Shown here in pieces: positions 44,400 through 45,671 of a stretch of DNA of 64,000 nucleotides. Source of the DNA: Myxococcota bacterium (lineage in GTDB: Bacteria > Myxococcota_A > UBA9160 > UBA6930). The notes beneath the pieces are model-generated. The model was not told the DNA's origin. It ran no database searches and saw only the letters and a program-made list of their open reading frames with translations. A program made the translations under genes and the position numbers. The stretch's first letter is position 1, and each line of letters starts with the position of its first letter. The stretch lies in NCBI GenBank assembly GCA_028285625.1, contig JANQOX010000026.1:17825-81824 (forward strand), written 5' to 3'.

Positions 44400-45671
44400 T
44401 CACGCCGGCGCTGGCGGCCCCGAGCCATCCGCCGCCGGGCTCGGGAGCGGCGGCAGGGCCACGCGCTCCTCCAAGCAGCCGTAGGCGGTGGGAGCGAGCT
44501 GGATGACCGTATGCAGGGGCATCTCGAGGTGGGGAATCTCTGCCGTGGGCAGCTGCAGGAAGTACGCGTAGAGCGCGCGCAGGACGGCGCGGTGGCCCAC
44601 CACCAGCACCGGCGTGCGGTAGCGCTCGAGTTCGACGATCACGCGGTCGAGGCGCTGGATCACGTCTTCGTAGGACTCGCCCTTCGGGTAGCGGTACCGC
44701 AGCTTGTCGTTCTGGCGCGCCTCGAACTCCTCGGGCATGCGCCTCGCGATCTCGGCGTAGGTCATGCCGTCGCAGACGCCCGAGTCGATCTCGTCGAGCG
44801 CGCGCCACTGGCCGGGAACCAGACCCATCGGAATGGCGGTGTCGATGGTCCGCCGCAGCGTGCTCGTCCATACGTCGAGGTCTACCAGTTCGTGCGCGTG
44901 GGCGTTCACGTGGTCGGCCAACGATCGCGCGAACACGCGCCCCCGGTCGCTCAGCGGCGCGTCGCCTCCGATGCGGCCCTGGCAGTTGTAGAGGCTCTCA
45001 CCGTGGCGGGTGATCCAGACCGGGCGCTTCGTGACCTGGAGGTTGGTGAGGAACGAAGCGATCCGCGCGGAGATCCAGCCCCGGACCTCGTGGCTCGTGA
45101 TGGTCCGGCCACGGCTGGCCAGCCGGATGAAGCTGCCGTCCTCCTCGCTGAGCGGCGCGTAGACCCGTTCGTAGTGTGCGATGCGCGCGCGAAAGTCGCT
45201 CCAGGCCTCGGCCTCGGGAACGCCGCGGTAGTCCGGCGACGAGAGTTTCGCGTCGCGCACGTTCTCGTCGATCACGTCGGAGTCGTTCTCGAGCAGCTCC
45301 ACGAAGAGCAGGTCGACGTCGGCGCGGGAGCAGCGCTCCTGGATCCGACGGCGCCGGGCGCGGGTGCCGTTGGTCGCGTCGAAGATCGCGATGCGGCCTT
45401 CCCCTCGGAGCCACGCGAACGCCTGGTCCAGCGTGTCGTCCGTGAGCGCTTCGCGTTGCGCCGTCGCCTCACGGTCGTCGGGATCGAAGAACGCAGCGCT
45501 CTGTCCCGGGCCGAGGCGGTCTCGGCGGCGCTCCCCGACGTTGAAGGTGCGGGTCGGGTAGCCGAGCCAAGACAGGTACCCTCGAAGCTTGCGGGCCGTG
45601 AAGGTCTTGCCGCGAGCGGGCAGACCCACCATCGCGATCAGGTGCTTTCGACCGCGGCGCGGCAGCCCCAT
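44400..45671 (-). CDS. bifunctional 6-phosphofructo-2-kinase / fructose-2,6-bisphosphatase (eukaryote-type PFK-2/FBPase-2)
   Basis: C-terminal 423 codons of tracked ORF 44400..46601, from ATG 45671. Kinase half: IAMVGLPARGKTFTARKLRGYLSWLGYPTRTFNVGERRR. Phosphatase half: WITRHGESLYNCQGRIGGDAPLSDRGRVFA...GESYEDV...VVGHRAVLRAL (His-phosphatase RHG/H motifs). Confidence 0.9.
   Translation of the reverse strand: MGLPRRGRKHLIAMVGLPARGKTFTARKLRGYLSWLGYPTRTFNVGERRRDRLGPGQSAAFFDPDDREATAQREALTDDTLDQAFAWLRGEGRIAIFDATNGTRARRRRIQERCSRADVDLLFVELLENDSDVIDENVRDAKLSSPDYRGVPEAEAWSDFRARIAHYERVYAPLSEEDGSFIRLASRGRTITSHEVRGWISARIASFLTNLQVTKRPVWITRHGESLYNCQGRIGGDAPLSDRGRVFARSLADHVNAHAHELVDLDVWTSTLRRTIDTAIPMGLVPGQWRALDEIDSGVCDGMTYAEIARRMPEEFEARQNDKLRYRYPKGESYEDVIQRLDRVIVELERYRTPVLVVGHRAVLRALYAYFLQLPTAEIPHLEMPLHTVIQLAPTAYGCLEERVALPPLPSPAADGSGPPAPA

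Follow-up and report, generated by a model that had tools for sequence, protein, structure and literature searches.

A resident, core-only homologue of 6-phosphofructo-2-kinase/fructose-2,6-bisphosphatase with both predicted active sites intact in an uncultured Myxococcota lineage

Here we describe a gene carried by a 64,000-nucleotide stretch of contig JANQOX010000026.1 from a soil bacterium of the Myxococcota (GCA_028285625.1); this whole stretch is called the window below. The gene encodes a homologue of the bifunctional enzyme that, in animals, fungi and plants, combines 6-phosphofructo-2-kinase and fructose-2,6-bisphosphatase in a single chain (PFK-2/FBPase-2). Several layers of comparison support its reading as an intact, predicted two-site bifunctional enzyme, resident in a bacterial chromosome and, to judge from its relatives, vertically inherited within an uncultured lineage of Myxococcota. 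In our view the product is probably a catalytically competent enzyme reduced to the catalytic core, which would set the level of fructose-2,6-bisphosphate (F2,6BP) at the node between fructose-6-phosphate (F6P) and fructose-1,6-bisphosphate (F1,6BP).

The 423-residue protein carries the two Pfam domains in the single-chain order that defines PFK-2/FBPase-2, an N-terminal 6PF2K domain (E 1e-60, 205 bits against a cutoff of 27) followed by a C-terminal His_Phos_1 domain (E 3e-38, 132 bits against a cutoff of 21.7; Table 1). Furthermore, a phmmer search of the Protein Data Bank (PDB) placed residues 11 to 405 in a single collinear alignment with residues 37 to 433 of human PFKFB3 (E 5e-108), and PFKFB2, PFKFB1 and rat testis PFKFB4 were matched at about E 1e-100 to 1e-104, so that the similarity to characterised and structurally solved members runs along the full length. 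By itself, the bisphosphatase half matched 1c7z/1fbt, the FBPase-2 domain of rat liver (E 2e-61), and BLASTP identities reached 47% to the core of human PFKFB3 and 49% to that of the plant enzyme F2KP. This similarity is far beyond chance. A first-pass annotation had aligned both halves by eye with the animal and fungal enzymes, and this alignment is borne out by the domains, the collinear PDB match and the fold described below; the motifs that it quoted are both found in the translation, GLPARGKT (residues 16-23) and FNVGERRR in the kinase half and RHGES..N..GRIGGD..LS..G, starting at residue 222, in the histidine-phosphatase half.

Stand-alone histidine phosphatases such as PhoE, the alpha-ribazole phosphatase CobC, PspA and dPGM share the His_Phos_1 fold and the RHG motif with the C-terminal half. 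Nevertheless, they appear among the PDB matches only at E 1e-7 to 1e-12, and none of them bears a fused 6PF2K domain. In the same vein, all 13 matches to NCBIfam equivalogs of these groups (cobC, PspA, PhoE-like, dPGM) fell far below their cutoffs and were confined to the C-terminal half, the best being TIGR03162 cobC with 85 bits against a cutoff of 162.9.

An AlphaFold2 model built with 25 homologues reached a mean predicted local distance difference test (pLDDT) score of 89.7 and a predicted template modelling (pTM) score of 0.85. Compared by Foldseek, it superposes on 1k6m, 5hr5 and 1bif with TM scores of 0.90-0.91 and root-mean-square deviations of 1.4-1.6 Å over about 402 columns, and on the bisphosphatase domain 1tip with a TM score of 0.97 on the target. 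Both the fold and the relative placement of the two domains in the model are thus those of the family, and low confidence is seen in the C-terminal tail, 18 residues rich in proline and alanine.

The protein corresponds to the catalytic core only: about 10 residues precede the P-loop strand and 18 follow the last conserved strand, and the alignments show none of the regulatory extensions that animal, fungal and plant isoforms carry at their N- and C-termini. With the animal enzymes PFKFB1-4 (human PFKFB3 2AXN/6IBZ, rat testis 1BIF, human liver 1K6M) it shares the order of the domains, 44-47% identity over about 400 residues, an identical P-loop, the catalytic lysine and aspartate, the F6P ligands, the histidine of the RHG motif, the glutamate and the second histidine. 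Besides its bacterial host, it differs from PFKFB3 in having no N-terminal regulatory segment, in carrying the short proline- and alanine-rich tail in place of the phosphorylated C-terminal one, and in having Arg for Ser303, Glu for Cys155 and Arg for Gln389. From plant F2KP (e.g., the CBM20-bearing protein of Stylosanthes, P0126) it is set apart by the lack of an N-terminal extension of about 340 residues. The homologues of Desulfovibrio desulfuricans and those of Myxococcota that are already named by NCBI have in common with it a bacterial host, the family name and the core-only length, although the window protein is at most 64% identical to the named Myxococcota entries.

Table 1. The PFK-2/FBPase-2 gene of the window and the features that accompany it (positions within the window).
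Feature	Position	Strand	Basis or remark
PFK-2/FBPase-2 gene	44400..45671	minus	Open reading frame (ORF) list and translation; 423 aa plus stop
Shine-Dalgarno-like GGGAGG	45677..45682	minus	Read from the sequence; 5 nt 5' of the ATG at 45671
Kinase domain 6PF2K, residues 8-214	45030..45650	minus	Pfam PF01591; homologue column comparison
GLPARGKT, residues 16-23	45603..45626	minus	
Bisphosphatase domain His_Phos_1, residues 218-399	44475..45020	minus	Pfam PF00300; residue table
Codon of the phospho-acceptor His223	45003..45005	minus	
Downstream 125-aa ORF, putative secreted protein or lipoprotein, possibly co-transcribed	44001..44378	minus	ORF list

Homologues of the gene are numerous in Myxococcota. 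A word-indexed protein search returned 3889 proteins at E ≤ 1e-10, and the best 120 clusters, at 56-78% identity, consist of proteins of about 400-427 residues with both domains; those that bear names come from metagenome-assembled genomes (MAGs) of Myxococcota or 'Deltaproteobacteria', and three of the clusters (P0069, P0074, P0090) are named by NCBI as '6-phosphofructo-2-kinase/fructose-2,6-bisphosphatase' or 'fructose-2,6-bisphosphatase'. When one genome per GTDB species was scanned in a pattern-limited way, 60 loci were obtained. Nearly all belong to MAGs of Myxococcota, Polyangiaceae or Polyangiales recovered from soil, peat and groundwater; some lie on contigs of megabase scale, and none of the 60 belongs to a cultured isolate.

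The residues that would perform catalysis and bind substrates were read in an alignment of PFKFB3 with 120 close bacterial homologues and 99 representatives of a 50%-identity library. We take the numbering of PFKFB3 to be that of UniProt Q16875, and the letter at every position agreed with the aligned human sequence. For the kinase, the catalytic positions are presumably K48/T49, D125 and K169, and the window protein presents the Walker A segment G16-T23, the Walker B aspartate D98 and the catalytic lysine K142. These columns are invariant in all 120 Myxococcota homologues except within the P-loop, where one A-to-G and one R-to-V change occur and threonine alternates with serine at T49. The F6P ligands, which we take to be R75, R99, T127, R133, R190 and Y194 of PFKFB3, are all present as R49, R73, T100, R106, R163 and Y167, accompanied by N137; among the 120 homologues only R133 (Q in 30) and R99 (L in 2) vary.

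As for the phosphatase, the presumed catalytic positions R253/H254, E323 and H388 of PFKFB3 correspond to R222/H223, E294 and H360, which are kept throughout the clade (120/120), and G224 and N229 are present too. The F2,6BP ligands are assumed here to be an arginine at position 303, Y334, R348, K352, Y363, Q389 and R393; R274, Y305, R319, K323, Y334 and R365 stand in the window protein at six of these positions. The sole departure is at Q389, replaced by R361, a substitution shared by 106 of the 120 members of the clade and by 13 of the 99 library representatives. In turn, R274 stands where PFKFB3 has the activity-lowering Ser303, a column occupied by arginine in 95 of the 99 representatives. 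Altogether, it is precisely the columns of the F6P and F2,6BP ligands that show the apparent mark of purifying selection. A histidine phosphatase fused to an unrelated P-loop, lacking key kinase residues on proper alignment, had been named as the finding that would undo the first-pass annotation; it is rejected, for the kinase and the phosphatase residues were all found.

A second line of evidence comes from the surroundings of the gene in other genomes. When the flanking ORFs of the 60 species-level loci were clustered, a phosphofructokinase gene (PFK; PF00365) was found divergently oriented and immediately upstream in five of them (L001-L005), whose PFK-2/FBPase-2 proteins are 66-67% identical to that of the window. 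The same divergent pair also occurs on metagenomic contigs carrying more or less distant homologues (P0105, 59%; P0011, 70%; P0100, 61%), which makes eight verified pairs (L001-L005, L065, L066 and L069) with intergenic distances of 65-300 bp. Only verified loci were counted as adjacent. Among 12 candidate pairs deduced from contigs of equal size, five were checked, of which three proved adjacent, one possibly co-located and one, that of P0038, a false coincidence. The possibly co-located homologues, P0101 and the PFK P0441, have longest contigs of 4,542,233 bp each; no PFK lies within 6 kb of the P0101 gene, and the two may share this 4.5-Mb contig without adjacency.

The paired PFKs are about 410 residues long and their best solved relative is the 434-residue PFK 9dqm (E 9e-90), dependent on inorganic pyrophosphate (PPi) and presumably the enzyme of Trichomonas vaginalis. 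All of them carry the PPi-type motif PKTIDND; one subgroup, to which L065 and L066 belong, has GGDD, a PPi signature, and another, with L003, has GGDG, an ATP signature, in the terms described for phosphoryl donors in PMC12203962. These variants suggest a putative switch of donor specificity within one bacterial PFK clade. The pairing recalls the situation of plants, where F2,6BP, the product of F2KP, activates PPi-dependent PFK (PMC12203962).

Other neighbours were not shared. Synteny of the window with the 60 related loci does not extend beyond the PFK-2/FBPase-2 gene itself, and no homologue of the ORF downstream of it adjoins the gene in any of the 60, a comparison that rules out as conserved partners both this ORF and the upstream gene of a short-chain dehydrogenase/reductase (SDR). 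Two further arrangements were seen in relatives. In eight of the 60 loci (L008 and seven of Polyangiaceae type), a gene for a Ser/Thr protein kinase is found no more than 6 kb from the orthologue, mostly downstream; as these kinases abound in Myxococcota genomes, the recurrence may be due to chance. In P0002, the nearest relative on a long contig (78% identity; L062, 5914-9284), the gene shares about 50 nt with the 3' end of a GH3 beta-glucosidase gene read in the same direction, suggesting that it belongs to one operon with an enzyme that releases glucose.

If the protein works like the solved animal enzymes to which it is homologous, its N-terminal kinase, with the P-loop, would transfer the gamma-phosphate of ATP to O2 of F6P, yielding F2,6BP, and the C-terminal domain would return F2,6BP to F6P and inorganic phosphate through a phospho-His223 intermediate, with E294 as the likely proton donor and H360 and R222 stabilising the phosphate. 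Since the tails that bear phosphorylation sites are absent, the balance between both activities would presumably be set by metabolites, by the level of expression or at transcription, from the promoter region that the divergent genes share. Most likely, the enzyme serves to adjust how much F2,6BP is available as an effector at the F6P/F1,6BP node. For this effector, the foremost candidate target would be the PPi-PFK-type phosphofructokinase that divergently adjoins the orthologue in several relatives. Class I fructose-1,6-bisphosphatases (FBPases), which F2,6BP inhibits by resembling their substrate, may constitute a second target. The ORF, its domains, residues and fold, its residency, the clade and the adjacency to PFK in relatives are read directly, in contrast with the enzymatic activities, the F2,6BP of the cell and its target, which we infer.

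Several observations weigh against such a role. Adjacency to PFK is seen in only 5 of the 60 species-level loci, and no PFK adjoins the gene in P0002 and P0007, the nearest relatives on long contigs. Within the 64-kb window itself no PFK or FBPase was found, either by tblastn with the PFK of the relatives, which gave noise only, or by Pfam scans of the called genes. The paired bacterial enzyme is of the short type represented by 9dqm, unlike the long alpha/beta PFP of plants, which is the type activated by F2,6BP; furthermore, PMC12203962 describes every bacterial PPi-PFK characterised so far as non-allosteric and lists activation by F2,6BP for plant PFPs alone. The eukaryotic consensus is broken at two positions: PFKFB3 has C155 where this protein has Glu and the clade N, E or T, and Q389 where it has Arg. 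Finally, no biochemically characterised bacterial member of the family was found in the literature searched.

It could then be that the same fold does another physiological job: the enzyme might act mainly on another phosphosugar, have in effect a single function in vivo and yield F2,6BP as a by-product, or work in a cell that has no F2,6BP-sensitive target. The absence of PFK and FBPase from the window, a gene context that differs among relatives, the non-allosteric behaviour of the bacterial PPi-PFKs and the clade-specific substitutions at positions 155 and 389 would all fit such an explanation. Nevertheless, the F6P and F2,6BP ligands of both sites are kept across a clade whose members have diverged down to 56% identity, which argues for selection on exactly these substrates, and the divergent pair that it repeatedly forms with PFK links the gene to the F6P/F1,6BP node. 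We therefore regard another job as unlikely, though it deserves to be kept in mind, and prefer that of a core-only PFK-2/FBPase-2 that would set the level of F2,6BP.

How the gene reached this lineage can be approached through its phylogeny. The first-pass annotation had presented fructose-2,6-bisphosphate signalling as essentially eukaryotic and its bacterial homologues as sporadic. For Myxococcota the latter is wrong, given more than 120 clusters, the 60 species-level loci and a deep monophyletic clade. An exhaustive HMMER search of 1.84 billion representatives gave 1097 at E ≤ 1e-30; labelled representatives among the nearest of these are a legume F2KP with CBM20, proteins of Rhodelphis, a dictyostelid, Mortierella-type and Smittium fungi, a choanoflagellate and Dermamoeba. 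The nearest representatives also include a second Myxococcota cluster (P0129), and another core-only protein (P0174) sits in a bacterial-looking gene context.

Neighbour-joining (NJ) trees of 392-393 trimmed columns with 200 bootstraps recover the main Myxococcota clade as monophyletic at 99-100%; further sequences labelled as Polyangiaceae and Nannocystis attach to it with weak support of about 20%, and the plant and animal groups receive 73-85%. In the backbone, no sister group of the bacterial clade exceeds 6% support; what the phylogeny proposed as a check of the first-pass annotation supports is the unity of the clade. The mean corrected distance from the Myxococcota clade to the eukaryotic groups, 0.78-0.91, is similar to that between plants and animals (0.93); the bacterial clade is old and lies within the overall spread of the family rather than on a long branch. 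Any transfer must be ancient, and its direction is not readable from the NJ trees. The label 'eukaryote-type' thus reflects the history of the literature and not a demonstrated direction of transfer. Within the uncultured lineage, the pattern of sequence relationships indicates vertical inheritance.

Two distant homologues stand apart from this picture. A locus on a 3.3-kb contig (L060, CAZGDK010000202.1) from a bin labelled Smithella groups, together with P0216, with a choanoflagellate-containing group at 100% NJ bootstrap and not with the Myxococcota clade. Either a transfer of its own or the mis-binning of a eukaryotic contig could account for this grouping.

A recent horizontal acquisition from a eukaryote, as a passenger gene outside the metabolism of the host, would be in keeping with a family described overwhelmingly from eukaryotes (PMC9721465, PMC12873801) and with plant, Rhodelphis, dictyostelid and fungal proteins, at 45-52% identity, among the best 50%-cluster representatives. 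No eukaryotic sequence, however, exceeds about 52% identity, against the more than 120 bacterial clusters at 56-78%. Moreover, the mean pairwise distance within the monophyletic Myxococcota clade amounts to 0.41, the codon composition is fully native, and the divergence of the gene tracks that of a neighbouring gene of housekeeping type. Such a recent arrival is accordingly quite improbable, and an old resident gene of the lineage is the better account.

The local data point in the same direction. The GC content is 0.67-0.73 across the whole window, and that of third codon positions (GC3) is 0.90 in the PFK-2/FBPase-2 gene, against 0.86-0.95 in the 44 other called genes. Both flanks are bacterial, with genes for a beta-lactamase-fold protein, a molybdopterin oxidoreductase, a PMT_2 glycosyltransferase, the SDR, a peroxiredoxin, amidohydrolases, a fatty-acid cis/trans isomerase, a pyrroloquinoline quinone (PQQ) dehydrogenase and Lnt. 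An identical protein with the same neighbours occurs on an independently assembled Logan contig (L061, run SRR20820731). The best named relatives of the molybdopterin oxidoreductase, whose gene lies 2.4 kb away, come from Myxococcota or 'Deltaproteobacteria' MAGs at 68-73% identity, a divergence similar to the 65-78% of the best relatives of PFK-2/FBPase-2. In addition, the 73% homologue of the oxidoreductase (P0296) and the PFK-2/FBPase-2 homologue P0068 both have longest contigs of 5,833,097 bp, which suggests that they share one contig.

Native GC3, bacterial neighbours, the independent assembly and the similar divergence of a neighbour make contamination, chimerism and recent transfer very unlikely, and the gene can be considered resident in the bacterial chromosome. 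The first-pass annotation had reached this conclusion from the local context, naming a chimeric contig as what would overturn it; the codon composition, the ribosome-binding site, the bacterial flanks and the gene order preserved in the Logan assembly all uphold it. Eukaryotic contamination, a chimeric contig or a mis-assembly, in whose favour stand only the eukaryotic reputation of the family and the distant Smithella-bin contig, which could be mis-binned, would have to produce an intron-free ORF with a ribosome-binding site, uniform GC and GC3 over 64 kb, bacterial genes on both sides, the same protein and neighbours in the independent assembly and homologues on megabase-scale bacterial contigs, and it retains hardly any credibility.

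The context as first described, GC-rich and with the stop codon 21 nt upstream of the next minus-strand ORF, is correct, while the 'lipoprotein' label of that ORF is only plausible. It has a signal-peptide-like N-terminus and a non-canonical lipobox, LANTGC; it matches no Pfam family, and it is present in the independent assembly too. A promoter and terminator scan of positions 43800-46000 found no sigma-70-like promoter and no intrinsic terminator.

Other features of the window, unrelated to the gene, are worth recording. Two AhpC/TSA (Bcp-like) peroxiredoxin genes, at 46474-46965 and 58207-58731 on the plus strand, present an in-frame TGA (46642-46644 and 58396-58398) at the position of the peroxidatic cysteine, in the contexts YFYPKDFTPG*TVEA and AWFPKAFTPG*TAEL. 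Because of this codon, ORF callers give only C-terminal fragments of 105 and 92 residues. Within about 5-20 nt after each TGA a stable hairpin is predicted (-28.7 and -23.3 kcal/mol over 60 nt), and the two proteins are candidate selenocysteine proteins with putative bacterial selenocysteine insertion sequence (SECIS) elements. Further upstream, the plus strand encodes a 1554-residue protein (25061-29725) with an adenylate/guanylate cyclase catalytic domain and AAA_16/STAND-like NTPase regions, followed by an ORF of 1681 codons (29951-34996) with high GC3 that matches no Pfam family. On the minus strand, a full-length fatty-acid cis/trans isomerase CTI (50836-53175; E 9e-254), an enzyme best known from Pseudomonas and Vibrio, adjoins an acyltransferase and a 646-residue protein with no Pfam match. 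ARAGORN called a tRNA-Glu(CTC) at 36836-36908 on the plus strand, inside the part of the Lnt gene (35764-37314) that encodes the CN_hydrolase domain. An Rfam scan of the window gave no matches at the gathering threshold; since no Rfam tRNA is found there, the call is probably a false positive in GC-rich coding sequence.

There is a general conception that F2,6BP is foreign to bacteria. A passage of PMC9721465, citing Rider et al. (2004), states that it is absent from them except in Desulfovibrio desulfuricans, and one in PMC12873801, citing Michels and Rigden (2006), holds the regulation of PFK by F2,6BP to be specific to eukaryotes. Against these statements stands an apparently intact enzyme in a large, old and vertically inherited bacterial clade. 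It is already known that bacterial homologues exist, and NCBI names some Myxococcota proteins as PFK-2/FBPase-2; no paper joining 6-phosphofructo-2-kinase and Myxococcota was found in the literature searched, relative to which the size and depth of the Myxococcota clade and the pairing with a PPi-PFK-type gene are new. The mere existence of the homologue will not surprise a specialist. It is the intact residues, the vertical clade and the pairing with PFK that give a concrete and unexplored hypothesis, and the depth of the clade together with the pairing makes F2,6BP signalling in bacteria directly testable. Should neither F2,6BP activity nor a response to F2,6BP be found, the fused enzyme would prove able to serve a different purpose.

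The most far-reaching form of the hypothesis is that uncultured Myxococcota run a working F2,6BP circuit in which the core-only enzyme controls the PPi- or ATP-dependent PFK that many relatives encode back to back with it, which would be the first allosteric bacterial PPi-PFK and the first F2,6BP signalling in bacteria. The fused enzyme would then be ancient in the phylum, and the eukaryotic F2,6BP system, instead of being a purely eukaryotic invention, might go back to an exchange with a lineage resembling myxobacteria at about the time of eukaryogenesis, or even to an acquisition from it. Taken as a whole, this conjunction is decidedly doubtful. Nevertheless, if the circuit were true, it would extend to bacteria a classic regulatory principle of eukaryotes, and it would have a bearing on the gene contributions that myxobacteria have been proposed to have made to early eukaryotes.

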